Below are positions 2,168 through 38,386 of a DNA stretch of 39,445 nt, in pieces (the stretch's first letter is position 1; each line of letters opens with the position of its first letter). The notes below the pieces were generated by a model. It saw only the letters and a program-made list of their open reading frames with translations. It was not told the origin of the DNA and did not search any database. The position numbers and the translations under genes are program-made. This DNA is from an uncultured Lentisphaerota bacterium (GTDB lineage Bacteria > Verrucomicrobiota > Kiritimatiellia > RFP12 > UBA1067), in assembly GCA_900320855.1 (NCBI GenBank), contig ONTV01000031.1, positions 1 to 39,445 on the forward strand. Direction: 5' to 3'.

Positions 2168-3853
2168 ATGACGATTCGCGGTCTGATCGAGAAGTGGGCG
2201 GGCATTCAGCCGAATGCGAAGCTCTTCACCTACAACGAGGACAAGGTCTGGAAGACCCGCTCCTACGCGGCGTCCCTGAAGGGCGTCCGCGAGATTGCCG
2301 AGGGCTACGGCACGCGCTTCGGGCTGAAGCCGCGCGACGAGAACGCGGCGCTGATTCTGGCGAACTCGCCGACCTGGATCGAGTCGTACCTCGCGCAGGT
2401 CGGCACGGGCGTCTCGGTCGTGCCGATCGACCCGAAGCTCCACAACGAGGAGGTCGCCTACATCCTGAAGGACGCCGAGGTGCGCGTCGTGACGACCGGT
2501 CCCGAGCATCTCCGGATGATGATGCAGATCGCGAAGGAGCTTCCCTGCCTTCGGGCCGTCGTCGTCGTCGGGGGCGTCATCAACGCGGGGCAGAAGATCG
2601 ACGGGCGCGTCGAGGTCGTCGGCTATGAGAGCCTGCGCCTCGCGGGCGGCGGCGCGTGGTACGACGCCCACGTCGCCGAGCCGTCGGACATCGCGTCCAT
2701 CATCTACACGTCGGGCACGACGGGCAAGCCCAAGGGCGCGATGCTCACGCACGCGAACTTTATCGCCGACCTCGAAGGGGCCTACAAGCTCTTCGGCACC
2801 GTCACGAACAAGGACTCGTTCTTCGTCGTCCTCCCGCTTTTCCACGCCTTCTCGTTCTCGGCGAACTTCATCGCCTCGATGATGAAGGGCGCGTCGATGT
2901 GCTTCTGCCAATCGCTGCGCACCGTCGGGCAGGACATCCACGACCTCAAGCCGACCGTCATCTGCGCGGTGCCGCTCCTCGCGGAGAAGCTGCACGAGAA
3001 GATCGAGTCGGGGCTCGCGAAGTCGAAGCTCGCGCAGTTCCTCATGAAGATCGGGCTACGCGGGCCGGTCATGCACATGGTGAAGCTGAGACTCGGCGGA
3101 CGCCTGCGTTTCTTCATCACCGGCGGCGCGCCGTGCCCGCGTCCCGTGATGGAATGCTTCAAGCGCATCCACGTGCGCTTCCTCGAAGGCTACGGGCTGA
3201 CGGAATGCTCGCCGATCGTCTCGGTGTGTCCGCCCGAAGTCATCAAGATCGGCACGATCGGCCCGGCGATCGGCGGCATCGAGGTGCGCCTCGCCGATCC
3301 GAACGAGCAGGGCGTCGGCGAGATCCAGGTGAAGGGCCCGATTGTCATGCAGGGCTACTTCCACAATCCGGACGCGACGGCCGAGGCGTTCGAGGACGAC
3401 GGCAAGGGCGGTCTCTGGTTCCGCACGGGCGACCTCGCGTCGATGGACGAGGACGGCTTCATCACGATTCGCGGGCGCAAGAAGGCGCTGATCGTCAACC
3501 GCGAAGGCAAGAACATCTATCCGGAGGAGGTCGAGAACACGATCGCGAAGGAGCCGTGCATCTCGGACGTCGTCGTCGTCGGCTACACGCAGGGGGACGA
3601 TCCGGGCGAGAAGGTCGGCGCGATCATCTATCCGAACGAGGACTGGTTCAAGGATCGCAACGGCGGCACGTTGCCCGCGTGGGAGGACGTCGAGAAGTTC
3701 GCCATCAAGCACGCGCAGGAGCGCTGCGCGGAGCTCGCCGACTACAAGCGCGTGCGCAAGGTCGTCTGCGCGAAGGAGCCGCTCGTGCGCACGTCGATCG
3801 GCAAGGTCAAGCGCGTCGCCTACAAGGGCGCGCTGGACGAGGATGGGAAATAA
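2168..3853 (+). CDS. fadD: long-chain fatty-acid--CoA ligase (AMP-binding)
   Basis: IIYTSGTTGKPKG, GYGLTE, WFRTGD, GRKKALIVNREGKNIYPEEVE. Confidence 0.85.
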   Translation: MTIRGLIEKWAGIQPNAKLFTYNEDKVWKTRSYAASLKGVREIAEGYGTRFGLKPRDENAALILANSPTWIESYLAQVGTGVSVVPIDPKLHNEEVAYILKDAEVRVVTTGPEHLRMMMQIAKELPCLRAVVVVGGVINAGQKIDGRVEVVGYESLRLAGGGAWYDAHVAEPSDIASIIYTSGTTGKPKGAMLTHANFIADLEGAYKLFGTVTNKDSFFVVLPLFHAFSFSANFIASMMKGASMCFCQSLRTVGQDIHDLKPTVICAVPLLAEKLHEKIESGLAKSKLAQFLMKIGLRGPVMHMVKLRLGGRLRFFITGGAPCPRPVMECFKRIHVRFLEGYGLTECSPIVSVCPPEVIKIGTIGPAIGGIEVRLADPNEQGVGEIQVKGPIVMQGYFHNPDATAEAFEDDGKGGLWFRTGDLASMDEDGFITIRGRKKALIVNREGKNIYPEEVENTIAKEPCISDVVVVGYTQGDDPGEKVGAIIYPNEDWFKDRNGGTLPAWEDVEKFAIKHAQERCAELADYKRVRKVVCAKEPLVRTSIGKVKRVAYKGALDEDGK

Positions 3854-3936
3854 TCGAATGGTCGAATGATCGAATGATCGAATGATCGAATGAGCGAGTG
3901 AGCGAATGGGCGAGTGAATGATCGAGTGATTGGATG
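3853..3936 (+). repeat. degenerate octamer tandem array (ATCGAATG family)
   Basis: 10 units plus a half unit (atcgaatg, gtcgaatg, atcgaatg x3, agcgagtg, agcgaatg, ggcgagtg, aatg, atcgagtg, attggatg) filling the intergenic space. Confidence 0.9.
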
Positions 3937-4920
3937 AAAGAGAGTAATTTCTACCTCATCTGGCTGGAATGGCCGGAGTCGTGCTTCCGCGCGGACGCGG
4001 AAGCACTTCGGTTTCTGAAGACGCTTGTTCCGGTGGGCAGCTGCCTCGTGCGCGCGCGGAGCGAGGCCGCGTTCCTGAGCCAGCTGCCGCAGGCGACGCA
4101 TGTCGTGACGTGGCACTTCAAGAGAGAGTGGTTTGTCCGCGCGCCGAAGCTGAAGGTGCTGGCGACGCCGGGGGCCGGCCGCGAGCTCGTCGCGCTGGAG
4201 GCGCCGCCCGGCGTGACGCTGCACTTCGGGCGCTTTCACGGCGACATCATGTCCGAGTCGGTCGCGGCGTTCGTCCTCGCCTGGGCGCGCGGCTTCTTCG
4301 CCGTGCGCGACTACGCGGGCTATGGCGGCGCGCAGGCGACCGCCGTTCCGAACTGGCCGCGCGCGGAATTGAGCGACCGCTGCTTCACGGTCGCCGGCAC
4401 GAAGGCCGTGATCGTCGGCTACGGGCGCGTCGGCGGCGCAATCGGGCGGCGGCTGGAGTCGCTGGGCGTGTCCGTCCAGGGCTTCTCGCGGCGCAACCTC
4501 GGCGACCTCGACGCGGCGCTGAAGACGGCGGACTGGCTCGTCCTCGCGTTGCCGAGCGACACGGGGACGGACGGCTTCCTTTCGCGGACGCGGCTTCGGA
4601 AGCTGCCGAAGCGTGCGGTCGTCGTCAATGTCGGGCGCGGCAATGCGGTGGACGAGCCGGCGCTCGTCGAGGCGCTGCGGACGGGGCGGATTGCCGGTGC
4701 GTATCTCGACGTCTTTCTGTCCGAACCCGGCCCGCTGGAGAGGATTATTGGGCGTGGGAAGGTGGGAGCGTGGGAAGGTGGGGACAGGCCCCGAACAATC
4801 CTGGGGACAGACCCCCAGAGGTTGCCGCCGAATTTGATTCGAATGCCGCATGCGTCGGCGTTTTCGCGCGATTATCTGAAGCGTTGCTTTCAGGAGCTGA
4901 AGGATGACGGGTGTCTTTGA
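3934..4920 (+). CDS. D-isomer-specific 2-hydroxyacid dehydrogenase family protein
   Basis: IVGYGRVG Rossmann motif, VNVGRGNAVDE, GAYLDVFLSEP, MPHASA. Confidence 0.85.
   Translation: MKESNFYLIWLEWPESCFRADAEALRFLKTLVPVGSCLVRARSEAAFLSQLPQATHVVTWHFKREWFVRAPKLKVLATPGAGRELVALEAPPGVTLHFGRFHGDIMSESVAAFVLAWARGFFAVRDYAGYGGAQATAVPNWPRAELSDRCFTVAGTKAVIVGYGRVGGAIGRRLESLGVSVQGFSRRNLGDLDAALKTADWLVLALPSDTGTDGFLSRTRLRKLPKRAVVVNVGRGNAVDEPALVEALRTGRIAGAYLDVFLSEPGPLERIIGRGKVGAWEGGDRPRTILGTDPQRLPPNLIRMPHASAFSRDYLKRCFQELKDDGCL
4754..4818 (+). repeat. in-frame GTGGGAAN octamers plus two GGGGACAGNCCCC palindromes
   Basis: gtgggaag gtgggagc gtgggaag gtggggac; ggggacaggcccc (4780-4792) and ggggacagacccc (4803-4815). 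Confidence 0.75.
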
Positions 4921-5347
4921 GGCCAATTCCGTCGAGGAGACGTGGGCGCTTGCGCGGCAGTTTGCGGCCGAGCTGAAGCGGGGTGACGTCGTTTGCCTCG
5001 AAGGCGATCTGGGCGCGGGGAAGACGACGTTCACGCAGGGGCTCGCCGCCGCGCTTGGCGTCGCGGGGCGCGTGACGTCCCCGACCTTCTGCCTGGTGCA
5101 GGAGCATCGGAGAGTGGGAAAGTGGGAAAGTGGGAAGGTGCCACTCCTCCTCGTCCATATGGACCTCTATCGTCTGCGTGGCGAGGACGACGTGCTGGCG
5201 ATCGGATGGGAGGACTATTTGGCCGAAGGCGCGATTCTCGTCGTCGAGTGGCCGGAGCGGGCGGGCTCGCTCATTCCGCCGACGGCGAAGCATGTCGTCT
5301 TCACGCATCTGGACGGACACGAGCGCCGTCGCCTTGAGTTTGCGTAG
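4904..5347 (+). CDS. tsaE: tRNA threonylcarbamoyladenosine biosynthesis ATPase TsaE
   Basis: LEGDLGAGKTTF, VTSPTF, HMDLYRL, VVEWPE. Confidence 0.95.
   Translation: MTGVFEANSVEETWALARQFAAELKRGDVVCLEGDLGAGKTTFTQGLAAALGVAGRVTSPTFCLVQEHRRVGKWESGKVPLLLVHMDLYRLRGEDDVLAIGWEDYLAEGAILVVEWPERAGSLIPPTAKHVVFTHLDGHERRRLEFA
5114..5137 (+). repeat. three GTGGGAAR octamers in frame within tsaE
   Basis: gtgggaaa gtgggaaa gtgggaag = 24 bp, encoding VGKWESGK. Confidence 0.85.
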
Positions 5348-5398
5348 TGGGCGCCCACGGGCATTTCCCATTTTTGCTATAATACAGCGATACGATAT

Positions 5399-5440
5399 GT
5401 TTCACAGAACAGAAAGGAAGTTTCACAGAACAGAAAGGAA
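5399..5440 (+). repeat. perfect 21-bp tandem duplication in 5' leader
   Basis: gtttcacagaacagaaaggaa x2, downstream of a TGCTATAAT promoter box (5375-5383). Confidence 0.9.
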
Positions 5441-9147: not shown

Positions 9148-11457
9148 ATGAAAAACAAGAAAGTGTTTTTGGTGGCCGCCACAGTCCTGTGTGCGGCGGG
9201 TGTTTTTGCGGCGCATGAGGGCGGTCCCCCGCCCTATCCGAACTTTGGCCTGCCCCGCGTGGAAGAGATGATGTTCCTCGTCCTCCAGATCGGCGTCATC
9301 ATCTTTGCGGCGCGCGTGGGCGGCGCGATCGCGGCCTGCCTGAAGCTGCCGTCGATCCTCGGCGAACTCGCGGCCGGCATCGTGATCGGCCCGTGGGCCC
9401 TGGGCGGGCTTGGCTTTGGCGACGGCCTGTTTGCGGGCGGCCTCTTCCATGGCGCGGAGCTGCGCGCGATCGCGAAGGAGACGGGCCATGCGTTTGACGC
9501 GACGTCGCCCGCGCTCTACGGCATCGCGACGCTGGCCTCGGTCATCCTCCTCTTCCTGTCGGGCCTTGAGACGAACCTCAAGCTCTTTCTCCGCTACTCG
9601 TTCGTCGGCCTCATGGTCGGCCTCGGCGGCGTGATCGTCTCGTTCGTCTTCGGCGACCTCTGCGCGGTCTACCTGCTGCCGGAGTTCTTCGAGCACTTCG
9701 CGTACCTGAAGGGCCTGCCGCTCGCCGAGGCGATGACGAAGGAGGCGCCGCTCTACATGGGCATCATGGCCACGGCGACCTCGGTCGGCATCACGGCGCG
9801 CATCCTCTCCGAGAAGAAGCAGATGGATTCCGAGGAAGGCGTGACGATCATGGCGGGCGCCGTGATCGACGACGTCCTGGGCCTCATCGTGCTGGCGATC
9901 GGCAACGGCATCATCGTCGCGAACCACGCGGTGGCGAAGGCCGGCACGGCCGCTGGGGCGATGGACTGGGGCGCGATTGGCCTCGTCGCGCTCAAGGCGT
10001 TCGGCGTCTGGCTCGGCGCGACAGCGATCGGGCTTCTCGCGGCGCCCTGGATCGCGAAGTTCCTGAAGGCGGCGTTCAAGAACCCGGTCGTCATCGCGAC
10101 GATGGCGTTCGGCCTCGCGCTTGTCCTCGCCGGCTTCTTCGAGTTCATGGGGCTGGCGATGATCATCGGCGCGTACGTGATGGGCCTCGCGCTCTCGCGC
10201 ACGGACCTCAAGCACCCGATTCAGGAGATGCTCACGCCGGTCTACACGTTTCTCGTCCCGGTCTTCTTCTGCTCGATGGGCATGATGGTCGACGTCACGG
10301 CCCTCTGCTCGAAGCCCGTCCTCATCTTCGGCGGCATCTACACGGCGCTCTCCGTCGCGGCGAAGGTGATCGGCTGCATGGTGCCGTCGCTCTGCTGCGG
10401 CTTCAATCTCCTTGGCGGCCTTCGGATCGGCGCGGGCATGATGCCGCGCGGCGAAGTCGCGCTCATCATCGCGGGCCTCGGTCTTTCGAGCGGCTTCCTC
10501 ACGCAGGAGATCTTCGGCATCGGCATCCTGATGACGCTCGTCACGACGGTCGTCGCGCCGCCCGCGCTCGTCGGGCTCTTCGCGCCGAAGGCGAAGGGCG
10601 TGCGGCATCCGAAGCAGAGCCACGACAACTCGCGTCCCGTCGTCTTCGAGCTGCCGACGGCCGACATTGCCGCGCTCATGCTCGACAAGCTCGTCGCCGA
10701 GTTCCGCGACGAGGGCTTCTTCACGTCGCTCCTCTCGAAGGAGGACAGCATCTGGGAGATTGCGATGGACAACCTGGAGCTGTCCGTCCAGCGCGACAAG
10801 AACGTGATCACCGTCTCCTGCACACCCGCCGAGGAGGCGATCGTGATGACGGCGTGGATGGAGGTCGCCTCCGAGATGAACGACCTCGCCCGCCAGATCG
10901 CCAAGCCCATCCGCCGCGAAGACGTCAGCCGGATGCTGAAGGACGGCGACTCGACGGCGTCGGCGAACAAGCGCCACACGGGCGTCGGCCGCCATCTGAA
11001 GGACTTCGTGATGCTGCCGAAGTTCCGGGCCTCTTCGAAGAAGGAGGCGATCGAGAAGCTCATCGCCGAAATCGCGGCGGCGTGTCCGTCGCAGGTCAAG
11101 GACGTCGCCGCCGCGACGGCGGCCGTCCTGCGCCGCGAGGCCTCGATGCCGACTGGGCTTGACCACGGCATCGCCGTGCCGCACGGCCGCTGCGCGGAAG
11201 TGGACGGCATCGTCGGCGCGGTCGCGATCCTCGACAACGCGGGCACGGCGAACGGCTGCATCCCGGACTACGAGACGATCGACAACTCGCCGCTCGCGAT
11301 CATCGTTCTGACGATTGCGAACGACTCGACGCAGACGCCCTACCTGCAGCTGATGAGCTACATCTCGAAGGCGCTGCGCGGCGACTGCGGCTACGAGAAG
11401 CTTGCGCAGTGCACGACGGCGGACGAGATGCGCAAGTTCTTCCGCAGCGTGAAGTGA
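9148..11457 (+). CDS. CPA2 cation:proton antiporter fused to C-terminal PTS EIIA (Ntr/Fru-type) domain
   Basis: LPSILGELAAGIVIGP, ATSVGITARIL, AVIDDVLG, MMPRGEVAL; C-terminal RREASMPTGLDHGIAVPHG EIIA signature. Confidence 0.85.
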   Translation: MKNKKVFLVAATVLCAAGVFAAHEGGPPPYPNFGLPRVEEMMFLVLQIGVIIFAARVGGAIAACLKLPSILGELAAGIVIGPWALGGLGFGDGLFAGGLFHGAELRAIAKETGHAFDATSPALYGIATLASVILLFLSGLETNLKLFLRYSFVGLMVGLGGVIVSFVFGDLCAVYLLPEFFEHFAYLKGLPLAEAMTKEAPLYMGIMATATSVGITARILSEKKQMDSEEGVTIMAGAVIDDVLGLIVLAIGNGIIVANHAVAKAGTAAGAMDWGAIGLVALKAFGVWLGATAIGLLAAPWIAKFLKAAFKNPVVIATMAFGLALVLAGFFEFMGLAMIIGAYVMGLALSRTDLKHPIQEMLTPVYTFLVPVFFCSMGMMVDVTALCSKPVLIFGGIYTALSVAAKVIGCMVPSLCCGFNLLGGLRIGAGMMPRGEVALIIAGLGLSSGFLTQEIFGIGILMTLVTTVVAPPALVGLFAPKAKGVRHPKQSHDNSRPVVFELPTADIAALMLDKLVAEFRDEGFFTSLLSKEDSIWEIAMDNLELSVQRDKNVITVSCTPAEEAIVMTAWMEVASEMNDLARQIAKPIRREDVSRMLKDGDSTASANKRHTGVGRHLKDFVMLPKFRASSKKEAIEKLIAEIAAACPSQVKDVAAATAAVLRREASMPTGLDHGIAVPHGRCAEVDGIVGAVAILDNAGTANGCIPDYETIDNSPLAIIVLTIANDSTQTPYLQLMSYISKALRGDCGYEKLAQCTTADEMRKFFRSVK

Positions 11458-12866
11458 CGCGCGCTTTGACGATAGCTGCCATTGCGACCGCCCCCGGCCC
11501 TGCCGGCGTGGCGGTCGTTCGCGTCTCCGGGCCGGAGGCGTTGGCCATCGCCGCGCGCCTGACCGGCACGCCCGTGACGCGGCGCGGCCTCTATTTTCGC
11601 AAGATCTACGCGGCGGCGGACAAAGGACCGCGGGCGTCCGACAGCGGCGCGGCGCGGGGCGGCGTGATTGATGAGGCGGTCGTGCTTGCGTTCCGGGCGC
11701 CGCAGTCCTATACGGGCGAGGACGTGGTCGAGTTCCAGTGCCACGGCGGCGCGGTCACGCCGCGTCGCATCCTGGAGGCCTGCCTGGCCGCCGGCGCGCG
11801 GCTGGCGCGACGCGGCGAGTTCACGGAGCGCGCGTTCCTGAACGGACGGCTCGACTACGATCAGGCCGAGAGCGTTCTCGACCTCATTCAGGCGAAGACG
11901 GCGCGGGCGGCGGATGCCGCGTTGGATGGCCTGGCCGGACGGCGCACACGGGCGAACCGCGCGCTCTACGACCAGGCGCTCGCGCTTTCGTCCGAGCTTG
12001 AGCATGCGCTCGACATTGACGAGGGCGAGCTGCCGGACTCGTTCTTCGCGGGCATTCGGTCGTCGCTGGCCGCGCTCGCCGCCGCGCTGGACGCGGCGGC
12101 CGTGCGCGTGCGCGAGGGACGGATCCTGCGCGACGGCGCGCGTGTCGTCCTGGCCGGGCCGCCGAACGCGGGCAAGAGTTCGCTCCTGAACGCCCTGTTG
12201 GGCGAGAGCCGCGCGATCGTGAGCGACGTGCCGGGCACGACGCGCGACGCGGTCGAGGCATGGCTCGACCTCGACGGTTGGCCCGTCCGGCTTGTGGACA
12301 CGGCGGGTTTGCGCGCGACGGGCGACGCCATCGAGGCCGAAGGCGTGGCGCGCGCGGAGAAGCTGATCGCCGACGCGGACGTGGTGGTGATGCTCGGAGG
12401 GGGAGAAGGAGTAAGGAGTAAGGAGAAAGGAGTAAGTAGTTCTCCTTGCTCCTTATTAATTTCCGTTCATGCCAAGTGCGACTTGGGGCGCGGCGACGGG
12501 CTGAACGTCTCGGCGAAGACGGGCGAGGGGCTGGTGGAACTCAAGCGGGCGATCGTCGCCGCGCTGGAGACGCGGGCGGCGTCCGCCGCCGCCGAGTCGT
12601 CGTCCGACACGCCCGACGACCGAACGCTTGCCGTCCTGTACGACGCGCGCGCGTGTCTTGCGCCGTTCCTCGACGGGCGGCCTGTCCTGTGCGACGCGCG
12701 CGCGCGCGTCGAGCCTCCTCTGTGCACGGGCGGCCCGGCCCTCGACCTCGTGCTCGCGGGGAACGCCGTGCGCGGCGTCGCCGAGCGGCTGGGCGAACTC
12801 GTCGGCGCGACGTATTCCGCCGACTTGCTCGACAACCTCTTCTCGCGCTTCTGCGTCGGCAAGTGA
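11454..12866 (+). CDS. mnmE: tRNA modification GTPase MnmE
   Basis: TIAAIATAPG, SYTGEDVVEFQCHGG, GPPNAGKSSL, GTTRD, DTAG, C-terminal FCVGK; likely GTG start overlapping the upstream stop (GTGA). Confidence 0.95.
   Translation: MTRALTIAAIATAPGPAGVAVVRVSGPEALAIAARLTGTPVTRRGLYFRKIYAAADKGPRASDSGAARGGVIDEAVVLAFRAPQSYTGEDVVEFQCHGGAVTPRRILEACLAAGARLARRGEFTERAFLNGRLDYDQAESVLDLIQAKTARAADAALDGLAGRRTRANRALYDQALALSSELEHALDIDEGELPDSFFAGIRSSLAALAAALDAAAVRVREGRILRDGARVVLAGPPNAGKSSLLNALLGESRAIVSDVPGTTRDAVEAWLDLDGWPVRLVDTAGLRATGDAIEAEGVARAEKLIADADVVVMLGGGEGVRSKEKGVSSSPCSLLISVHAKCDLGRGDGLNVSAKTGEGLVELKRAIVAALETRAASAAAESSSDTPDDRTLAVLYDARACLAPFLDGRPVLCDARARVEPPLCTGGPALDLVLAGNAVRGVAERLGELVGATYSADLLDNLFSRFCVGK
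12400..12455 (+). repeat. AGGAGTA-family heptamer array with inverted copy, in frame in mnmE
   Basis: aggagta aggagta aggagaa aggagta agtagtt followed by ctccttg ctcctta. Confidence 0.8.
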
Positions 12867-19837: not shown

Positions 19838-19863
19838 CGCGGCTGCGGAGGGGGATCCCTTTC

Positions 19864-21297
19864 ATGGTCATTCATCCATCGGACAACGTGGAGGTCCGCG
19901 ACGACGGACACAAGTACGCGCGGCGCGACATCGCCGAAGGCGAGAACATCATCAAGTACGGCATGCCCATCGGGCACGCGACGCGGGCGATCGCGAAGGG
20001 CGAGCACGTCCACGTCGACAACGTGAAGACGAACCTCGGCGAAGTCCTCGAATACCGCTACGAGCCGTCGTTCGCCGACGTCCCGCGCGTTCCCGCGCCG
20101 ACGATCCGCGCCTACCGCCGTCCCGACGGGCGCATTGGCATCCGCAACGACCTCTGGGTCATTCCGCTCGTCGGCTGCGTGAACCGCCTTGCGGAACGGC
20201 TGGCCGCGCGCGTCGGTGGCCTCGCCCTCACGCATCCCTACGGTTGTTCGCAGATGGGCGAAGACCACGAGCGGACGGCGAACATGCTCGTGCAGTTCTG
20301 CCACCACCCGAACGCGGGCGGCGTCCTCGTCGTCGCGCTCGGTTGCGAGAACAACACGCTGGAGAGCTTTGCCGCACGTCTCGGCTACGACCCGAAGACC
20401 TTCGACGCCGCCTCCGGAACCTTCCAAACGCCCCAACCCCCAAACTCCCAAACTCCCAAACGCCCAAACATCCAGCCCCCTTTCAACATCCGTTTCCTCC
20501 GTGCGCAGGATCCGGGCGACGAGTTCGAGAAGGGACTGGCGCTGCTGGCGGAGCTGGACGCGGCGCGCCCGAAGACGCGCGAGGCGGTGTCGGCGTCCGA
20601 GCTCGTCGTGGGGCTCAAGTGCGGCGGGTCGGACGGCTTTTCGGGCCTCACGGCGAATCCGCTCGTCGGTCGGTTCTCCGACTGGCTCGCCGCGCGCGGC
20701 GGCTCGACGATCCTCACCGAGGTCCCCGAGATGTTCGGCGCGGAGACGCTGCTCATGAAGCGGTGCCGCACGCGCGACGTCTTCGACAAGTGCGTGAAGA
20801 TGATCAACGACTTCAAGGGCTACTACGCCGCGCACAACCAGGTCTGCTACGAGAACCCCTCGCCCGGCAACAAGGCGGGCGGCATCACGACGCTGGAGGA
20901 CAAGTCGCTCGGCTGCGTGCAGAAGGGCGGCTCGGCCCCGGTCGAGGACGTGCTGGGCTACGGCGAGACCGTGAAGCGCCACGGGCTTTCGCTCCTGACG
21001 GGCCCCGGCAACGACCTCGTCGCCTCCACGGTGCTGGCGGCGGCGGGCTGCCACCTCATCCTCTTCACGACGGGGCGCGGCACGCCGTTCGGCTGCGTCG
21101 TCCCGACGCTCAAGGTCGCGACGAACGACGCGCTCGCGGCGAAGAAGCCGAACTGGATCGACTGGAACGCGATGTCGAATCCCGACGTCGAGGCGTTCGC
21201 GCAGAAGGTGCTGGCGGTCGCGAGCGGCGAGAAGGCGAAGAACGAGGTCTGCGGCGCGCAGGGCATCGCGATCTTCAAGGACGGCGTGACGCTCTGA
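19864..21297 (+). CDS. uxaA: altronate dehydratase
   Basis: SAF domain (IIKYGMPIG), HPYGCSQ, LKCGGSDGFSG, NPSPGNKAGG, FTTGRGTP. Confidence 0.92.
   Translation: MVIHPSDNVEVRDDGHKYARRDIAEGENIIKYGMPIGHATRAIAKGEHVHVDNVKTNLGEVLEYRYEPSFADVPRVPAPTIRAYRRPDGRIGIRNDLWVIPLVGCVNRLAERLAARVGGLALTHPYGCSQMGEDHERTANMLVQFCHHPNAGGVLVVALGCENNTLESFAARLGYDPKTFDAASGTFQTPQPPNSQTPKRPNIQPPFNIRFLRAQDPGDEFEKGLALLAELDAARPKTREAVSASELVVGLKCGGSDGFSGLTANPLVGRFSDWLAARGGSTILTEVPEMFGAETLLMKRCRTRDVFDKCVKMINDFKGYYAAHNQVCYENPSPGNKAGGITTLEDKSLGCVQKGGSAPVEDVLGYGETVKRHGLSLLTGPGNDLVASTVLAAAGCHLILFTTGRGTPFGCVVPTLKVATNDALAAKKPNWIDWNAMSNPDVEAFAQKVLAVASGEKAKNEVCGAQGIAIFKDGVTL
20424..20479 (+). repeat. CCAAACNC octamer array in frame in uxaA
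   Basis: ccaaacgc cccaaccc ccaaactc ccaaactc ccaaacgc ccaaacat ccagcccc; reverse complement of the GTTTGG family at 36306. Confidence 0.85.
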
Positions 21298-22563: not shown

Positions 22564-22803
22564 GGCGCGGGGAGCAGCTCGCTCCGAGCTTTTTCGGGCA
22601 CACCACTGTAGCCATTTTGCTTCGCAAAACTCGCCTGTCGGCTCGGTGGATACCGCCTGTCGGCTCGGTGGATACCGCCGACAGGACTCCACGAGGTGAA
22701 TGGAGCCTCTGGCCTTCGCTTCCGCATCGGCCCCGCGAGGTGAATCGGCGCGTCGCCGGCCACGTCGGGCCCGAAAAGCTCTGCGCGACTCCTCCCCCGC
22801 GCC
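22564..22803. repeat. 240-bp element with imperfect terminal inverted repeats (MITE-like or structured RNA)
   Basis: Arms 22564-22599 and 22769-22803 are reverse complements with a few mismatches; internal hairpins and a 22-bp tandem duplication (22632-22675). Confidence 0.55.
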
Positions 22804-28364: not shown

Positions 28365-28472
28365 CGCGCGCGACGGCAATATGCTATAATGCGCGAAACC
28401 CAGAATGTCAACAAGTGGCACGAAGACAGCCGTTAAAAGCCAGCCGTTAAGAAACAAATCGCAATCCGTTCA

Positions 28473-28618
28473 AGGAGCAAGTAGCAAGGAGTAAGTATGG
28501 AAGTTCAATTGTTCTCTCTTCAGCGTGCCATTCGGCCTTTGTCGCTTGTCTTTTGTCGTCTGTCCTCTCCTGTCTCGCGTCTCGCGTCCTCTCGCTTCTC
28601 ACGTCTCTTGTCTCGCGC
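28473..28618 (+). repeat. heptamer arrays spanning the RBS and N-terminus of the GH2 gene
   Basis: aggagca agtagca aggagta agt-ATG; then cctttgt cgcttgt cttttgt cgtctgt ... ctcgcgt ctcgcgt ... ctcacgt ctcttgt ctcgcgc. Confidence 0.7.
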
Positions 28619-30479
28619 CCTCCCCCTCTCGGCCGCCCTCTCTCTCTTCGTCTTCGCGCTCGCCGCCCCCGCCAACGCCGCGCCGTCCGCGCCGCTGACG
28701 ACGCCGTGGGGCGAGAAGGTGACGGACGCGAACGCCTGGCGGGAGTACCCGCGCCCGCAGCTCGTGCGCGACGGCTGGACATGCCTGAACGGCGACTGGG
28801 ACTACGCCGTGACGAGCGTCACGAACACGCCGGGGCGCCCGGAGAAATGGGACGGGAAGATCCGCGTGCCGTTCGCGATCGAGTCCGCGCTCTCCGGCGT
28901 CGGGCGGCTCCTCGGGCCGGACGAGTTCCTCTGGTACACGCGCAAGGTCGACTGCCGGAAGCGGCCCGGCGAGCGCATCCTCCTGCACTTCGGCGCGGTC
29001 GACTTCCGCGCGCAGGTCTTCGTCGGCCACCGCGAGGTGACGGACGTGCCGCACGAGGGCGGGAACCTGCCGTTCACGCTCGACGTCACGGACTACGTCG
29101 CGGACGGTGAGAACGAGCTGACGGTCTGCGCGTGGGACCCGACGGAGGACTTCGTCAACTCGCGCGGCAAGCAGAGCTTCGAGCCGAAGGGGTGCTTCTA
29201 CACGCGCGTGTCGGGGATCTGGCAGACGGTGTGGATGGAGAACGTGCCCGAGACGCACGTGGCGGGCTACGCGGTGGCGACGGACATCGACAAGGGCACG
29301 GTCACGCTGCGCTTCGACGTGCGCAGCCCGCGCTTCGCGAAGCCGGAGGTGACGGTCGAGGTCGCCGGGGTGAAGGCGACGACGGCGAACGGCGAGGTGA
29401 CGGTCACGCTGCCGAGACCCGTCCGGCTCTGGAGCCCGGACTCGCCGGAGCTCTACCGCTTCACGGCGGCCTGCGGGGCGGACTCGGTGAGGGGCTACTT
29501 CGGGATGCGCAAAATCGAGAAACGCGCGGACGCGAAGGGCGTGCTGCGGTTCTACCTCAACGACGAGCCGACGTTCCTCCTCGGGACGCTCGACCAGGGG
29601 TGGTGGCCGGACGGGCTCCTGACGCCGCCGTCGGACGAGGCGATGGCGCACGACATCCGGACGCTGAAGGACTGCGGGTACAACATGATGCGCAAGCACA
29701 TCAAGGTCGAGCCGCTGCGGTACTACTATCTGTGCGACACGCTGGGGATCCTCGTCGTCCAGGACCTGCCGAGCGGCAACCACAGCTACCTGTCGCCGCT
29801 GGACGCGAAGACGACGGCGAGGTACTGGCTTCAGCGGCAGGAGCAGAAGGGGCTCATGGACCTTCTGCAGACGTCGCCGTCGGTCGTGATGTGGTGCCCG
29901 TACAACGAGGCCTGGACGCAGCCGGGCGAGTTCCAGACGCACGCGATGCTCGACTTCGTGCGGAACTACGACCCGACGCGGCTCGTGAACGGGCCGAGCG
30001 GCTGCTGGGACTGGGAAGGCGGGTGCATCCTGCCGACGGGGTGGGTCGCGTGGGACAAGCGCATCACGACGGCGCACAAGCCGGCGGGAGTCTGCGAGGC
30101 GGGGGATACGGTTGACGCGCACCTCTATCGCGGGCCGGCGATGTTCCCCGTCAACGACCGGCGCATCTCGTTCCTCGGCGAGTTCGGCGGCCTCGGGCAT
30201 TCCGTCGAGGGCCATCTCTGGAAGAAGACGGCGAAGAACTGGGGCTATGGCGGCAACAAGGACACCGCGACGCGCGAGGGGCTCGAGAAGACGTACGTCG
30301 CGCTCCTCGAAAAGGTCGCGGACCTGGCGGCGCAGGGCCTCGGCGGCGCGGTCTACACGCAGACGACGGACGTGGAGGTCGAGATCAACGGCCTCATGAC
30401 CTATGACCGAAAGGTGATGAAGTTCGATCCGAAGGCCCTTCGCGCCGTGCATCGGAAGGTCCTGGACGCCGTGCGCTGA
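28497..30479 (+). CDS. secreted glycoside hydrolase family 2 protein
   Basis: EYPRPQLVR, LHFGAVD, SGIWQTVWME, LDQGWWPDG, RKHIKVEP, YNE acid/base, GEFGG nucleophile, YTQTTDVEVEINGL. Confidence 0.9.
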   Translation: MEVQLFSLQRAIRPLSLVFCRLSSPVSRLASSRFSRLLSRALPLSAALSLFVFALAAPANAAPSAPLTTPWGEKVTDANAWREYPRPQLVRDGWTCLNGDWDYAVTSVTNTPGRPEKWDGKIRVPFAIESALSGVGRLLGPDEFLWYTRKVDCRKRPGERILLHFGAVDFRAQVFVGHREVTDVPHEGGNLPFTLDVTDYVADGENELTVCAWDPTEDFVNSRGKQSFEPKGCFYTRVSGIWQTVWMENVPETHVAGYAVATDIDKGTVTLRFDVRSPRFAKPEVTVEVAGVKATTANGEVTVTLPRPVRLWSPDSPELYRFTAACGADSVRGYFGMRKIEKRADAKGVLRFYLNDEPTFLLGTLDQGWWPDGLLTPPSDEAMAHDIRTLKDCGYNMMRKHIKVEPLRYYYLCDTLGILVVQDLPSGNHSYLSPLDAKTTARYWLQRQEQKGLMDLLQTSPSVVMWCPYNEAWTQPGEFQTHAMLDFVRNYDPTRLVNGPSGCWDWEGGCILPTGWVAWDKRITTAHKPAGVCEAGDTVDAHLYRGPAMFPVNDRRISFLGEFGGLGHSVEGHLWKKTAKNWGYGGNKDTATREGLEKTYVALLEKVADLAAQGLGGAVYTQTTDVEVEINGLMTYDRKVMKFDPKALRAVHRKVLDAVR

Positions 30480-33680: not shown

Positions 33681-34451
33681 ATGAACAAACTGACGATCAT
33701 GAGTCTGGCGGCCCTTGCGGCGGCGGAGGTCTTCGCCGTGCAGGGTACGCTCAACACCGAAACCGAGTCCCTGACGGGCGACATCAAGTGGCGCGCGCGC
33801 GACAAGCAGTACGTCGTCTCCGTGAAGAAGGGGCAGACGATGGTTGACATGGAGCGCAAGAAAGACGACGTCGTCTCGCTCGACATCCCGAAGCCGCAGG
33901 GCTTCGACAAGGCCGTGCAAATGGTCGAAAGCGGGTCGGGCGCGGCGGCGATCGCGATCCTGCAGAAGATCGTCGACGAGTACGTGATGCTTCAGTGGGA
34001 CAAGCCGGCCGGGCGCTATCTCGCGATGGCGCAGCTCGCGGCGGGGCATGCCCAGAAGGCCAATGACATCTGCACGAAGATCATCGCGTCCGACAAGGAG
34101 GCGGCCTATTCGGGCGATCTCGCGGCGGCCTACTGGCAGTCGCTCCTGAAGCTCGGCAAGAACGACCAGCTGGAGAGCCTCCTGAAGAAGGCCGCGACGT
34201 CCGGCGACCGCACGGCGTCCGCCGCCGCGCTCGTCATGCGCGGCGACATCATCGTCGCGAAGTCGAACGATGCGCCCGACGCGCTCAAGGACGCGTTGCG
34301 CGACGGTTACCTGCGCGTTGTCCTCATGTACCAGGACGAGGCGTGCAAGCGCGAGCGCGGCGAGGCGATGCTCAAGGCCGCGCAGTGCTTCGACAAGCTC
34401 GGCCAGTCCGCGCGCGCCGAGGCTCTCCGCGCCCAGGCGAAGGCGATGTGA
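33681..34451 (+). CDS. exported protein with C-terminal TPR-like helices
   Basis: Signal peptide; ALRDGYLRVVLMY...AMLKAAQCFDKLG. Confidence 0.75.
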   Translation: MNKLTIMSLAALAAAEVFAVQGTLNTETESLTGDIKWRARDKQYVVSVKKGQTMVDMERKKDDVVSLDIPKPQGFDKAVQMVESGSGAAAIAILQKIVDEYVMLQWDKPAGRYLAMAQLAAGHAQKANDICTKIIASDKEAAYSGDLAAAYWQSLLKLGKNDQLESLLKKAATSGDRTASAAALVMRGDIIVAKSNDAPDALKDALRDGYLRVVLMYQDEACKRERGEAMLKAAQCFDKLGQSARAEALRAQAKAM

Positions 34452-34456
34452 GGTGA

Positions 34457-34506
34457 GGGAAATAATCGAATGGTCGAATGATCGAATGAACGGTCGAATG
34501 GCCGAA
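34457..34506 (+). repeat. second ATCGAATG-family octamer array
   Basis: 34457-34489 is identical to 3845-3877 (33 bp). Confidence 0.9.
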
Positions 34507-34536: not shown

Positions 34537-35361
34537 ATGAACAAGATCAAGAAGTCTCTGCTGGCGATGTCGATTCTCGTTGGAACGTGCGTCGCGCCAA
34601 TGGCCGCGCTCCAGTCGTATGGCCAGGAAATCACCGATGCCGCCGGCAACGCGGTTGACACCAACGCGGCGAAGTCCCAGAGCTCGGGCGGCGGATTCTA
34701 CGAGATCGTCTTCGGTTCGGGCATCGTCGGCATGATCCTGTGGTTTGCGCTCTTCGGCGACGGCGCGCTCGCGATCTACTTCGCCCTTGACTCCGCGATC
34801 CTCATCAAGCCGGACAAACTCATGCCGAAGAAGCTCATGGACGGTGTGCAGGGCGCGATGATGGAGGGCGACGTCGTCAAGGCGATGGAGGTCTGCGACC
34901 AGAACCCGTCCGCGATGGCGTCGATCGTCAAGGCGGCCTTCCAGCACATCGAGGAGGGCTTCGAGGCGATTCAGGAGGCCGTGACGGCGGCGTCCGACCT
35001 CGAGCAGGAGAAGATCCAGCAGCGGCTGAACTGGATTTCGGTCTGCGGCAACCTCGGCCCGTCCCTCGGCCTTCTCGGTACGGTGCAAGGCATGATCCTG
35101 ACGTTCCAGGCGCTCGCCTCCGGCGGCGCCGGCGATGCGGCCGCGCTCGCGAACTCGATCGGCCAGGCTCTCTGGACGACGGCCGGCGGCCTGATCGTGT
35201 CGATCCCCTCGATCACCATCTTCTACTCGCTCCGCAACAAGGCCAACCGCCTCATCCTGAAGATGACCGCGATGACGATGGAGATCCTGAACGGCCTCCG
35301 CAATGTCGCCGTCGATCCGGGCGCCGAGGGCGACGCTCCGGCGGAAGCGGCCCAGGCGTAA
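34537..35361 (+). CDS. exbB: MotA/TolQ/ExbB proton channel protein
   Basis: GPSLGLLGTVQGMI and ALWTTAGGL TM signatures; extra signal-like N-terminus. Confidence 0.9.
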   Translation: MNKIKKSLLAMSILVGTCVAPMAALQSYGQEITDAAGNAVDTNAAKSQSSGGGFYEIVFGSGIVGMILWFALFGDGALAIYFALDSAILIKPDKLMPKKLMDGVQGAMMEGDVVKAMEVCDQNPSAMASIVKAAFQHIEEGFEAIQEAVTAASDLEQEKIQQRLNWISVCGNLGPSLGLLGTVQGMILTFQALASGGAGDAAALANSIGQALWTTAGGLIVSIPSITIFYSLRNKANRLILKMTAMTMEILNGLRNVAVDPGAEGDAPAEAAQA

Positions 35362-35379
35362 GCGAAAGGCCCTCGTTCC

Positions 35380-35880: not shown

Positions 35881-35883
35881 GCC

Positions 35884-36294
35884 ATGGCGCGCAAGCCACA
35901 GGAGAATCCCGCGCTCGACATGACGCCGATGATTGACGTCGTCTTCGAGCTGATCATCTTCTTCGTCGTCACGATCAAGCAGGAGGACACGCTTTCGAAG
36001 CTGAACGCGAACCGTCCCGCGCCCGCGTCCGGGTCATCGTCTTCAAACGAGTCCGACACGACCGTGACAATCGAGATCGGGCGGGGACACGACGCGAACG
36101 GCGTCCTCGTCTACAACAAGCGCGAGGTGCGGCGGTCGGAGCTCGACCAGAACCTGCGCGAGGTCGCCCGCACGTCGACGAAGACCCCCATCATCATCAA
36201 GTGCACGATGGATTCGCCGCACAAGGCGCTTGTCGATGCGCTTGACATCTGCTACAAGAACAACCTGTTCAGCGTCAGCATCTTCTCGATGTGA
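35884..36294 (+). CDS. exbD: ExbD/TolR family protein 2
   Basis: LDMTPMIDVVF, PIIIK, LVDALDIC. Confidence 0.85.
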   Translation: MARKPQENPALDMTPMIDVVFELIIFFVVTIKQEDTLSKLNANRPAPASGSSSSNESDTTVTIEIGRGHDANGVLVYNKREVRRSELDQNLREVARTSTKTPIIIKCTMDSPHKALVDALDICYKNNLFSVSIFSM

Positions 36295-36305
36295 GACGGG
36301 TGGGC

Positions 36306-36372
36306 GTAGGGAAGTTTGGATGTCTGGGCGTTTGGATGTTTGGAAGTCCTGAAAGTTTTGGAGGTTTAGGGC
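36306..36372 (+). repeat. GTTTGGAN 8/9-mer array abutting a start codon
   Basis: gtagggaa gtttggat gtctgggc gtttggat gtttggaa gtcctgaaa gttttggag gtttagggc ATG. Confidence 0.85.
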
Positions 36373-38112
36373 ATGGCTGAAGAGTTTGTCGAAGACGAGT
36401 TGCAGGAGGCCCCGCTGAGCGCGGAGGAACTCTTCGAGCAGCACAAGGCCGAGATTGAGGCGGCATTCGAGGAGAAGGGCTTTTTCCGCCGCATGGCGGA
36501 TATGTTGACGGGTCTCTCGAAGCCGCATTCATCTGCCGAGTTCAAGATCGCGAAGACGGAGCTCCAGCGGCTCATCGCCCCGATCGCGGCGATTACGCTG
36601 CCGGTCCTGGGCGTCGCCGTCCTCATTGTCGTGACGGCCGTCCAGGGACAGATGGACAAGAAGATCGAGGTCGAGGTCGCTCGTGCCCAGGAGGAGGAGA
36701 CCGAGCTCGAGGAGGAGCAGGAACAGGAGGAGATCGTCGAGCAGACGCCGCCCGAGGAGATGGTCGACGTCACGATCGACACGCCGGACGTCACCCCCGT
36801 GGCGGATGTCGTCACGCCGAGCGCGACGCCGACGGCCGAGCCGGTTTCCGTGAAGCCGGCCGCGCAGGATTCCGTCGCCCTCATCAAGTCGCCCGTCACG
36901 ATGAAGTCGATGACGGGTTCGCGGACGCCCGGCTCCATCGGCGCCATGACGCGGGGCGGCAATATGTACGGCGATGCGACGACGGAGGGTGCCGTCCTCA
37001 AGGCCCTGCGGTGGCTCAAGAAGACGCAGCTGCCGAACGGGACCTGGGGCAATGGCGGCAACCCGATCTCGAACGCGGGGCTGGCGATTCTCGCGTTCCT
37101 GGCCCATGGCGAGACGCCGGCCTCGAAGGAGTTCGGACCGACTGTCCAGAAGGCGATGCAGTTCCTGATCGATTCGCTGACGAAGAGGAAGGACAAGACC
37201 GGGCAGGAGGTCGTTTCCTTCAAGGAGACGGACGGCAACGAGTACGCGACGCTGATCGCGACCTACGCCCTTTGCGAAGCCTATGGCATGACGCGCAACC
37301 CGAACACGAAGATCGTGGCCATGCAGACCCTGCAGCGCATCGTCGACAACCAGTCGCCGACGGGCGGCTGGGACTACGGCATGAACCGCAAGTCGACGCG
37401 TGACGACATGTCATACGCGGGCTGGGCGCTTCAGGCGCTGAAGGCCGGCAAGATGGCGGGCATGCACCCAAAGGGGCTGGACGCCTGCATCAAGAAGGCA
37501 ATCAAGTGCCTGAAGACGCGCAACTTCAAGAACGGCGGCTTCAACTACACGGCGGGCGGCGGCCCGACGGGCCTGACGGCGACGGGCTGCCTTGCGATGC
37601 AGCTCCTCGGTTACATGAACGAGAACGAGGTGAAGGCCGCGCTCGACACGATGCGCGCGTGGAAGCCGTCGTTCGAGGGCACGAAGGGGAAGAAGCTCTC
37701 GGAGGCCCTGCCGGCGGCCAATCCCCAGTACTACTGCTACTACGCCGCGCAGTGCAAGTACCAGGCCGGCATGTGCCAGGGCGCAACGCCCGCGAACGTG
37801 AAGGCCTGGCAGGACTGGAACCTCGCGATGAAGGCCCTCTATCCACGCACGATGATCACGCTCCCCGAGAAGATTCCGGGGCTGGACGGCAAGCCGCGCG
37901 CAATCGGGTACTGGAAGTTCAAGGACCAGACGTGCGGCGGCGAGAAGGCGACGACGATGGCGACGTGCCTGGCGGCGCTGCAGATGATGGTTTACTACCG
38001 CTACCTGCCGACCACGCAGACAAAGGCCGCGAAGGCCATCACGTCGGGTGACGAGGACGAAGGCTCGAAGAAGAAGCAGAGCGACGAACTCGACATCGAG
38101 GTAGATATTTGA
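36373..38112 (+). CDS. single-TM protein with acidic/Pro-rich linker and prenyltransferase/squalene-cyclase QW-repeat alpha/alpha barrel
   Basis: TM IAAITLPVLGVAVLIVVTAV; linker EEETELEEEQEQEE...TPPEE; QW-like repeats ALRWLKKTQLPNGTW, IVDNQSPTGGWDY, LKTRNFKNGGFNY. Confidence 0.8.
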   Translation: MAEEFVEDELQEAPLSAEELFEQHKAEIEAAFEEKGFFRRMADMLTGLSKPHSSAEFKIAKTELQRLIAPIAAITLPVLGVAVLIVVTAVQGQMDKKIEVEVARAQEEETELEEEQEQEEIVEQTPPEEMVDVTIDTPDVTPVADVVTPSATPTAEPVSVKPAAQDSVALIKSPVTMKSMTGSRTPGSIGAMTRGGNMYGDATTEGAVLKALRWLKKTQLPNGTWGNGGNPISNAGLAILAFLAHGETPASKEFGPTVQKAMQFLIDSLTKRKDKTGQEVVSFKETDGNEYATLIATYALCEAYGMTRNPNTKIVAMQTLQRIVDNQSPTGGWDYGMNRKSTRDDMSYAGWALQALKAGKMAGMHPKGLDACIKKAIKCLKTRNFKNGGFNYTAGGGPTGLTATGCLAMQLLGYMNENEVKAALDTMRAWKPSFEGTKGKKLSEALPAANPQYYCYYAAQCKYQAGMCQGATPANVKAWQDWNLAMKALYPRTMITLPEKIPGLDGKPRAIGYWKFKDQTCGGEKATTMATCLAALQMMVYYRYLPTTQTKAAKAITSGDEDEGSKKKQSDELDIEVDI

Positions 38113-38244
38113 GTGGGGAAGTGGGAGAGTGGAACAGTGGGAAAGTGGAATGGTGGGAATGTGGGGAAGTGGGAGAGTGGGAATGTGAGAAAGTGGGAGA
38201 GTGGGAGGAAGAGGAGCGAGGCGGGAAAGTGGAAAGGTTTAAAG
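38113..38244 (+). repeat. GTGGGANN octamer array
   Basis: 12 consecutive units at 38113-38208 plus 3 at 38221-38244, starting directly after a stop codon. Confidence 0.92.
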
Positions 38245-38296
38245 ACAGCGGAAGGTTGGCGGAATGTGACGGACGGGTGTGAGTTGTCCGATGAAC

Positions 38297-38386
38297 ATCT
38301 GAGATCTGGAATTTGAGATCCGGAATGAACAGTTGAGGCTTGCCACGAGCATTTGAAATCTGAGATTTGAGATTTGAAATCTTGAA
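38297..38386 (+). repeat. two ATYTGAR heptamer arrays
   Basis: atctgag atctgga atttgag atccgga (38297-38324); atttgaa atctgag atttgag atttgaa atcttgaa (38351-38386). Confidence 0.85.

Follow-up and report, generated by a model that had tools for sequence, protein, structure and literature searches.

Families of 7–8-bp repeats, among them the short tandemly repeated repetitive (STRR) sequences, the TAACTGA repeats and the long simple sequence repeats (LSSRs), have been recorded for decades without a mechanism. The STRR heptamers of cyanobacteria are dispersed tandem short repeats. TAACTGA direct repeats occur in Beggiatoaceae, cyanobacteria and Bacteroidetes, as given in the available part of MacGregor 2015 (PMC4679880), where the LSSRs of Mrazek and co-workers (2007), with units of 5–11 bp, are also summarised. 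Here we describe arrays of 7- and 8-bp units on a contig of 39,445 nucleotides from an uncultured Lentisphaerota bacterium (ONTV01000031.1, contig C106 of the assembly G000; hereafter the window) and in the remainder of its genome, where the origin of such repeats can now be tested. The arrays are a variant of the STRR/TAACTGA-type repeats, and their pattern suggests a genetic element that spreads rather than slippage by chance. Our preferred explanation, held tentatively and at somewhat less than an even chance, is that they are the arms, or solo arm copies, of a small hairpin-type (foldback) cassette whose full form is of the IVP type. Such a full cassette would consist of an IVP gene (PF05635, a four-helix bundle, Avd-like) between two inverted arrays, mostly of 6–8-bp units.

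The arrays resemble the STRR and TAACTGA repeats in that tandem sets of one unit are scattered over many unlinked loci, most of them intergenic and some within open reading frames (ORFs), in that the phylogenetic distribution is patchy, and in that the mechanism is likewise not established. They differ in that the units are mostly octamers with two variable positions, that several families occur together, and that the head of an array is defined and its tail decays; TAACTGA is not among the period-7 consensus units listed for G000. The TAACTGA repeats of the BOGUAY genome are described in PMC4679880 as lying just before start codons, whereas the TCGAATRR arrays described here follow stop codons, with the native ribosome-binding stretches staying between the array and the next start. 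The same article contains neither "helix bundle" nor "intervening sequence", i.e. no link to IVP. The LSSRs, as summarised there, share with our arrays an excess of non-triplet 7–8-bp units, the occurrence in a non-pathogen and changes of copy number by slippage. However, LSSR theory predicts no shared heads, inverted pairs, placement at gene ends or association with a gene, and unlike LSSRs the non-triplet units persist here in coding DNA as 24-nt super-periods. The searchable literature, with supplements outside its scope, does describe TAACTGA repeats, G-rich heptamers and Borg repeats (STRR in mentions only), but neither the octamer families described here nor IVP genes with tandem repeats at their flanks were found in it.

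Eukaryotic foldback transposons have long inverted arms of short tandem units, which are regular outside and degenerate inward, and many of their copies are without a coding part. Our arrays differ from them in the bacterial host, in that no transposase was identified and in that a target duplication is not consistent. More generally, and unlike in miniature inverted-repeat elements or other transposons, there is no fixed-length target duplication, no conserved interior and no transposase that follows the arrays. Repetitive extragenic palindromic (REP) sequences are imperfect palindromes of about 20–40 bp which flank a single gene of the REP-associated tyrosine transposase (RAYT, Y1 transposase). 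REP and REPIN sequences resemble our arrays as short intergenic repeats with inverted hairpin pairs, lineage-specific and with very unequal loads in close relatives, but the arrays here are tandem with 7–8-bp units and the Y1-like family of the genus does not follow them. Diversity-generating retroelements (DGRs) do not fit, as the sole reverse transcriptase of G000 is of the RVT_1+GIIM type, though no search was made for pairs of template and variable repeats; neither does CRISPR (23–50-bp repeats with unique spacers), as the 7–8-mers are contiguous and free of spacers. The Borg tandem repeats are fast-evolving, lie between genes and in frame, and add disordered peptide; according to the available part of the source (PMC9879509) they arise independently at each site, whereas here a few motifs recur at about 150 sites. 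The available text on the intervening sequence in the 23S rRNA of Coxiella, which is flanked by a stem, carries an S23p/IVP ORF and was termed a selfish element (PMC4990558), offers a parallel to an IVP-family ORF inside a long stem of flanking inverted sequence. The cassettes that we examined closely lie, however, between protein-coding genes and not in rRNA helices, their stems are built of tandem units mostly of 6–8 bp, and copies of their arms are dispersed without the ORF.

The assembly holds 2,409,262 bases in 217 contigs (66.1 % GC, 87 % complete), and conspecific DNA is present in bovine and pig gut metagenome runs. Using Tandem Repeats Finder (TRF) and direct reading of the window, we recovered all of the about 11 arrays that had been listed in an earlier inspection of the letters, here called the sequence-only reading. 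For the whole genome, we counted non-redundant TRF arrays and compared them with a Markov-order-4 shuffle of the same contigs. At a TRF score of at least 50 there are 92 arrays of period 8 and 11 of period 7, against 0 in the shuffle for both periods, and at a score of at least 40 the numbers are 137 against 5 and 37 against 3. Clustering of the motifs placed 147 of the 174 period-7/8 arrays (score at least 40) in five families (TCGAAT 60, GTTTGG 45, GTGGGA 20, AAGGAG 14 and ATTTGA 8) and the other 27 in none; the sharing of motifs among unlinked loci is therefore real, and the expected excess over shuffled sequence was borne out. The GAGACGC-type heptamer and further motifs are likewise repeated elsewhere in G000. 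On reading, the arrays are richer in AT than the genome, or skewed towards G or purines.

The TCGAATRR arrays are polar, with an abrupt 5′ edge and a gradual 3′ decay. Across 71 array starts, the letters GAAATAA stand immediately before the first TCGAAT (54–68 of 71 at each position), and the 14 nt upstream of this head are purine-rich and C-poor. The variable letters are AA in the first unit in 57 of 71 cases and GG in the second in 37 of 71; the units vary at these two positions, in alternating GG/GA/AA patterns. Against a background of 1.34 of 6, the residual identity to TCGAAT in slots 2–4 is 1.90, 1.44 and 1.39 on the 5′ side and 2.55, 1.97 and 1.87 on the 3′ side. The shared head bears directly on the second-ranked explanation, which we consider somewhat less likely than the cassette: that there is no element, and that the arrays are endogenous long simple-sequence repeats, which grow by slippage from short local seeds at gene junctions and in loops and are homogenised or copied between loci by ectopic recombination or template switching. 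Loops of 7–8 nt would then evade mismatch repair, the families would reflect lineage history, and IVP cassettes would attract or need arrays. Growth from local seeds predicts locus-specific units in arbitrary registers and not one head at 54–68 of 71 starts. Independent slippage, as the sequence-only reading had argued from the recurring motifs, is insufficient for the families, given these head letters and the fixed register.

A sense ORF of at least 100 codons precedes 53 of the 71 array starts, with the array at its stop or at most 45 nt past it, and in 22 of these 53 cases the stop lies within the head or the array. The upstream ORF ends with the TAA of the head in 10 cases, with a TGA abutting the head in 8 and in later units in 12. 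Most units carry TAA or TGA on the sense strand, so that three units stop every frame, while the antisense strand has no stops, as read from the sequence. Genes were called with a crude GC3-based caller (78 % coverage), and on these calls the TCGAAT arrays at co-directional junctions are in sense orientation in 25 cases and antisense in 10. Among neighbouring TCGAAT runs at most 1.5 kb apart we counted 11 pairs of the type +−, 1 of −+, 9 of ++ and 4 of −−, i.e. 11 head-out inverted pairs against 1 head-in; most arrays are solo (79 runs). The solo arrays share the head and the first units with the arms and decay at what corresponds to the inner end.

Orientation of this kind could also be the mark of selected cis-elements in RNA or DNA, such as all-frame-stop and Rho-avoiding operon spacers, long stems around inserted cassettes that RNase III would process as in the 23S rRNA intervening sequences, G-quadruplexes or sites of an abundant RNA-binding protein, an explanation that we rank third and hold to be improbable. 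The sense bias of 25 against 10, the stops that arrays supply, the pairing of arms and the G-rich-first polarity on both strands of the cassettes (see below) would all agree with it, as would the run of three G in every 8 nt of GTGGGANN. Binding of S1, Csp or CsrA has been proposed for the TAACTGA repeats in the part of MacGregor 2015 (PMC4679880) available. Contigs from RNA libraries cover 36227-36741 and 28468-28922 of the window, with carry-over of DNA possible, and none of those listed crosses 38112-38390 or 34461-34506, in libraries that may contain DNA. Against such a function, close relatives use array-free spacers of 4–30 nt at the same junctions, arrays also sit in enzyme loops, where a regulatory role is unlikely, solo arrays fold in RNA no better than shuffles, and function leaves the identical heads at new loci unexplained.

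Filled and empty sites were followed in the nearest species (G040, G066, G050, G052 and G067; ExbB identity 92–95 %, DNA identity about 88–93 %), and array loads were compared in 61 genomes of the genus. The spacer between exbB and exbD1 is empty in G000, G050, G052 and G067, filled in G040 and G066 and separately filled in the more distant G063; both fillings start with TGAGAGAATAATCGAAT, and 26 other listed loci have no TCGAAT array there. In thrC, one loop is occupied by CCAAAC arrays in G000 (7 units), G050 (5 units) and G052 (3 units); in G066 the array of this loop is an antisense TCGAAT one, and G040 and G067 have no array there. Several arrays, as in thrC, stand in place of native sequence rather than being added to it. 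Arrays arise at new sites between species about 90 % identical, and the same permissive sites are struck by different array families. Empty alleles, on which the sequence-only reading had staked its interpretation, thus exist in close relatives.

Array loads vary more than 30-fold among close relatives, and do so family by family. Matches to TCGAATNN x3 number 163 in G000, 105 in G063, 79 in G066, 43 in G052, 19 in G040, 5 in G050 and 4 in G067; three further genomes have 1–2 and 51 of the 61 have 0, as has the reversed control. GTTTGGNN x3 has 86 matches in G000, 55 in G052, 32 in G050, 2–9 in three others and 0 in the remainder, and GTGGRANN x3 has 43 in G000, 24 in G066, 18 in G062, 14 in G005 and a few in other genomes. 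For an origin by slippage and recombination speaks the unit-like native sequence at such sites (GCGAAAGG at the empty exbB–exbD1, GCGAAACTT and CCCTTCGAC in thrC, and GAGAAATAA at an empty site of G052), whereas the same head gained twice is not predicted by it, and mutational bias leaves 163 against 5 matches at about 90 % identity, and 0 in 51 of 61 genomes, unexplained. Slippage does alter existing arrays, as one conspecific contig (run X8) has 24 additional bases, exactly three units, at 38152, and such whole-unit length polymorphism within the species is what growth by slippage would lead to; it is the single case of its kind seen.

The strain comparison used assembled contigs of four runs, with repeat-induced joints (e.g. 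20469->34457) disregarded. The fragmentation of the assembly into 217 contigs, and the fact that contigs of other assemblies end at arrays, might suggest an artefact of assembly or binning, but this has next to no chance of being right: 35991-38549 and 37396-38555 are bridged in contigs of independent runs from other studies, which contain the insert described below, orthologous arrays are found in several species assemblies and ORFs stay open through coding copies.

A search of genome contigs by the repeat pattern gave at least 98 stretches. Spread of the headed form over several phyla was considered and rejected: the records titled Kiritimatiellaeota, Verrucomicrobia UBA1629, Lentisphaeraceae and "Muribaculaceae" bin are read as the same genus on the ground that these multi-locus records have 57–71 % GC and the same head, several of them with the flanks of G000. 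The TCGAATAG arrays of Marinifilum, Labilibaculum and Anaerolineales do not have the GAAATAA head. As a separate observation, low-GC Bacteroidota (Marinifilum, Mesohalobacter, Labilibaculum) and metagenome-assembled genomes (MAGs) of Anaerolineales are rich in octamer arrays, of the TCGAATAG type and of others, with up to 11 per 8 kb (L081, L056, L021, L099 and others).

The proposed full form of the cassette comes from the surroundings of IVP genes. We inspected 34 IVP loci in relatives (the 12 best of one list with 13 and 9 others, part of longer lists). Within 150 nt of the gene, 22 of them have arrays on both sides, 9 have them on one side and 3 have none, with contig ends cutting 4 of the 9 one-sided and 2 of the 3 array-free loci. 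Control loci of the genus have 33 arrays in 135,551 bases (0.243 per kb), so the enrichment of four-helix-bundle/IVP genes beside arrays, which the sequence-only reading had suggested looking for, is present. The flanking arrays have units of 5–11 bp, mostly 6–8, and the two arms are inverted copies of each other, with a motif that varies from locus to locus. Their polarity is fixed: G exceeds C in 25 of 26 left arms and C exceeds G in 26 of 28 right arms, regardless of the strand of the IVP gene, and the G-rich strand points 5′->3′ inward from each side. Neither arms at 31 of 34 IVP loci nor a fixed polarity is predicted by slippage and recombination.

G000 itself has three PF05635 matches above the cut-off (95.4, 52.7 and 48.9 bits). 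The second belongs to an ORF of 128 amino acids (C64:1276-1662) enclosed by head-out TCGAATRR arms, which pair end to end in the RNA fold (−249 kcal/mol, z −8.4). Three genomes with records titled as other phyla (Marinifilum, Mesohalobacter and an Anaerolineales MAG) have 13 IVP loci, of which 6 carry arrays on both sides, 6 on one side and 1 on none; these are genomes that were chosen for their octamer arrays and are therefore not an unbiased sample. In L081, an IVP ORF (100.3 bits) lies 19 nt from a TCGAATAG array that had been detected by its repeat pattern alone. We also note a cassette in G066 (C38:9095-9668, L158:465-1042), where some 600 nt separate thrC, itself array-bearing, from an upstream IVP gene whose arms are of GTGGAAAR.

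Inverted arms with this polarity could alternatively be made by a dedicated repeat-adding polymerase, RT- or telomerase-like and perhaps with IVP as a cofactor, which would use a short template to extend the 3′ ends left by breaks or nicks. We place this explanation fourth and find it rather doubtful. The polarity fits 3′-end extension from both sides of a break (11:1 pairs), the head is defined and the length variable, and PF05635 resembles Avd, the partner of DGR reverse transcriptases, according to the available part of PMC10053308. However, the sole RVT_1 match of G000, in an assembly 87 % complete, is of the group II intron maturase type, the alternation of GG/GA/AA is better fitted by duplication of 16–24-nt blocks than by a single 8-nt template, and several arrays replace native sequence.

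The cassette explanation, which we place first, supposes that an arm is copied in a polar manner, starting at its outer end, to a target that has a few bases in common with the head or unit, and that the array then grows and shrinks via replication slippage. Targets like ...GAGAAATAA are common at Lys-stop gene ends at 66 % GC, which would explain sense arrays starting at stops. Sense copies, stopping all three frames, would survive solely at gene ends, while stop-free copies of a length divisible by three would survive in tolerant protein loops, where they would encode PNxQTxK-type peptides. The arm-copying mechanism is one that we infer.

Several observations weigh against it. The short matches between target and unit were judged by eye at about six junctions. 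A target-site duplication was seen once and is imperfect, with about 14 nt of gene overlap (GGATGAGAAGTAAT-like) flanking an array of the window (3841-3854 and 3932-3948), and none was found at 38113-38381, exbB–exbD1 or thrC. No internal sequence is common to the TCGAAT pairs, the centres of which differ. Arm polarity and sense bias could be explained by selection rather than by polar copying, for example if C-rich RNA that loads Rho were disfavoured when it precedes its pairing partner. Among the genomes of the genus, IVP copy number and array load do not go together: G060 has 13 IVP matches, yet 0 TCGAAT or GTTTGG, G063 (59 % complete) has 0 IVP matches and 105 TCGAAT matches, and G062 (91 % complete) has 0 IVP matches and 18 GTGGRA matches. 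The C64 IVP has no close ortholog in the TCGAAT-rich G040, G050, G052, G063 and G066, and its best match (60 %) is in G032, a genome without TCGAAT matches. The TAGTGG arms of the G052 IVP are not dispersed, with 13 of 13 matches on the IVP contig, and for two of the three G000 IVP genes the 150 nt on either side are free of arrays. Because of the copy numbers, the missing ortholog and the local arms of G052, we rejected the idea that IVP is the cognate factor of a single array family.

More broadly, IVP cassettes could be widespread undescribed hairpin elements, with arms written by polar, target-primed repeat addition at DNA 3′ ends, solo arrays as aborted events, and the same process behind STRR, TAACTGA and other 6–8-bp families. 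We regard this wider claim as a long shot. If polar 3′-end writing of arms were true, one process would lie beneath unexplained 6–8-bp repeat families across phyla. Tests of the origin can draw on a clade of at least six genomes of species rank, about 90 % identical, in which both filled and empty sites occur, on bursts of particular families, on the defined 5′ head, and on the IVP genes flanked by arrays at 31 of 34 genus loci and at 12 of 13 loci of Marinifilum, Mesohalobacter and the Anaerolineales MAG.

Regarding candidate enzymes, the sequence-only reading had stated that no depositing enzyme is encoded in the window, and indeed none of the 26 ORFs scanned is a transposase, a reverse transcriptase or an IVP. 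Its suggestion to look at reverse transcriptases and transposases led to a negative result, as neither the group II intron reverse transcriptase nor the Y1-like family tracks array load. The same holds for IVP, MutS, the PolA 5′-exonuclease and SbcD, and this want of a correlated enzyme is in line with slippage. A repair defect was rejected, since MutS_V and the PolA 5′-exonuclease domain are both present in G000, a point that slippage does not lead one to expect. Trans-acting deposition, as it had been proposed, therefore stands in part: independent slippage is insufficient and empty alleles exist, but no enzyme could be tied to the arrays. Scars and templated synthesis, the sources named by that reading, stay conjectural.

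SbcD (TIGR00619) was not found in G000 nor in 52 of 60 relatives; the 8 of 61 genomes that have it all show 0 TCGAAT and 0 GTTTGG matches. Absence of this hairpin nuclease might favour the persistence of long inverted arms, but many SbcD-free genomes are also without arrays, so SbcD explains nothing about load. A reverse transcriptase as the source was rejected, the single RVT_1 match of G000 (RVT_1 + GIIM, 471 amino acids, C97:16291-16914, L168:1063-2478, minus strand) being of the group II intron type. The Y1/HUH transposase-like ORF at C54:28371-29057 has an HFH motif and a Y1_Tnp match at C54:28407-28583 (24.8 bits); its upstream side carries no array and the contig ends within the gene. 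Its relatives, present in 39 of 61 genomes and often more than one per genome, show no relation to array load. This gene was likewise rejected, as its closest relatives (74 % and 58 %) are in TCGAAT-free genomes and none was found in G050.

Both placements given by the sequence-only reading, at gene junctions and inside genes, hold; the copies inside genes, however, are in-frame inserts that are translated through and not disruptions. Housekeeping enzymes carry arrays of the stop-free orientation as in-frame parts of their loops, and octamer arrays add low-complexity peptides of 8–28 residues to ThrC, MnmE, the putative TsaE, UxaA and GatA. GTTTGG arrays within called genes are antisense in 21 of 23 cases, a count that, like all counts of "coding" arrays, is an upper bound because the crude caller over-extends frames through stop-free arrays; they encode PNxQTxK-like peptides, e.g. 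in threonine synthase. Coding status was confirmed by protein context or ortholog alignment for 10 examples and for thrC, tsaE and other window loci. As the stop-free strand lengthens reading frames, ORF callers are misled. An example is L196:172-1275 (G000:C64, minus strand), judged by eye to be a putative prepilin-type N-terminal domain protein, in which stop-free antisense arrays lengthen the frame by about 50 codons; N-termini beside arrays will be over-predicted by gene callers. In practice, arrays provide stop codons for genes and also break short-read assemblies.

The arrays of the window are as follows.
3841..3933, plus strand: TCGAATRR array with the head GGGAAATAA (TRF 3849-3929, period 8, 7.5 copies)
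4752..4782, plus strand: GTGGGANN array within the 2-hydroxyacid dehydrogenase gene (3934-4920), in frame and in its variable C-terminal part
5109..5140, plus strand: GTGGGANN array, GTGGGAAR x4, in an in-frame loop of the putative tsaE (ORF 4904-5347)
12402..12460, plus strand: AGGAGTA heptamers (TRF 12402-12440) and then their inverted complement, in frame in the G-domain loop of mnmE (11409-12866)
20424..20469, minus strand: GTTTGGNN array, with CCAAACNC as its sense-strand form, part of an insert that altronate dehydratase (19849-21297) has in its inter-domain linker
28423..28497, plus strand: 14-bp x2 repeat and CAAGGAG/CAAGTAG heptamers (AGGAGTA by TRF at 28471-28497), reaching the ATG (28497) that starts a glycoside hydrolase family 2 (GH2) gene
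28538..28617, plus strand: pyrimidine-rich heptamers TTTGTCG and GTCTCGC in the first 40 codons of the GH2 frame
34452..34506, plus strand: TCGAATRR array with the head GGGAAATAA (TRF 34461-34506)
36295..36372, plus strand: GTTTGGNN array (TRF 36301-36348) filling the spacer from the stop of the second exbD (36292-36294) to the next ATG (36373)
38113..38381, plus strand: array-built insert of 269 nt between a TGA stop (38110-38112) and a TTG start (38382), made of GTGGGANN x12 (38112-38206, 11.9 copies), a decayed purine-rich stretch and ATYTGAR heptamers (38297-38381; TRF 38300-38326 and 38351-38390)

The insert at 38113..38381 faces a clean empty site in G040, G050 and G052, where the alignment leaves only 4–9 nt from stop to start. 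That the insert derives from a longer mobile element was rejected, as its middle part has no second copy in the genome. The ATYTGAR units at 38351-38381 are similar to the local stop/start context, which would suit growth by slippage from a local seed. The gene from TTG 38382 is putatively FtsX/LolE-like, to judge by its N-terminal sequence.

The array at 3841..3933 supplies, with the TAA at 3851-3853 within its head, the stop of the gene of an AMP-binding enzyme (2168-3853), and decays toward the ATG of the next gene at 3934. G040, G066 and G052 have no array there and the two genes overlap, while the array of G050 is shorter and decayed. The overlapping gene ends of the relatives resemble the head (GATGAGAAGTAAT; in G052 GAGAAATAA). 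The array at 34452..34506 immediately follows the stop (34449-34451) of the gene upstream of exbB (34537-35361). Orthologous arrays of varied lengths are found in G040, G066, G050 and G052 and a decayed trace in G067; at 22 more distant readable loci of the genus the same junction has plain spacers of 47–177 nt (mostly 47–99) and no TCGAAT array. The GTTTGGNN array after the second exbD has about 5 units in G000, fewer in G040, G066, G052 and G050, and is not found more distantly.

Among the arrays inside genes, that of mnmE forms an 18-bp hairpin (RNA fold −26.7 kcal/mol, z −5.0, equalled by 0 of 200 shuffles). G066 and G067 have a different purine array with its complement in this loop, and G050 and G052 have none. 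The loop also holds unrelated in-frame repeats in other species (G003 and G013; L003, L006), namely a 9-bp GGGACAGGC x4 repeat and a PLATS-type repeat; it is a general hot spot of repeat-coded inserts, and unrelated repeats at one place are a point in favour of slippage. The ORF at 4904-5347 is taken to be tsaE from sequence motifs. Its loop has no array in G040, a short footprint in G067 and, in G066, the sister of G040, a head-out inverted TCGAAT pair of 141 nt through which the frame stays open. The insert of altronate dehydratase corresponds to an 84-column alignment gap in G040, G066 and G067, and residues 180–211 of the G000 protein have no match there. The pyrimidine-rich heptamers at 28538..28617 do not fold better than shuffles. 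The segment 28372-30500 (2.1 kb, the GH2 gene with its 5′ arrays), with a TATAAT-like promoter stretch of its own, is missing in G050 and G052, where the flanks abut.

At the position of 4752..4782, relatives hold another repeat, GGGGACAGRCCCC, with a period of 22–23 nt. This small palindromic motif (window 4783-4830) has 72 copies in G000, 54 of them within crude gene calls, and is present in 3–4 copies of that period in the C-terminal region of the 2-hydroxyacid dehydrogenase of G040, G066 and G050 (L171, L172, L170). It represents a second, REP-like repeat family that is likewise tolerated in frame. Perfect direct repeats of 21 bp x2 and 22 bp x2.2 are located at 5399-5440 and 22632-22679, and 22601-22692 is skipped or replaced in contigs of other runs, so that this spot is polymorphic among strains.

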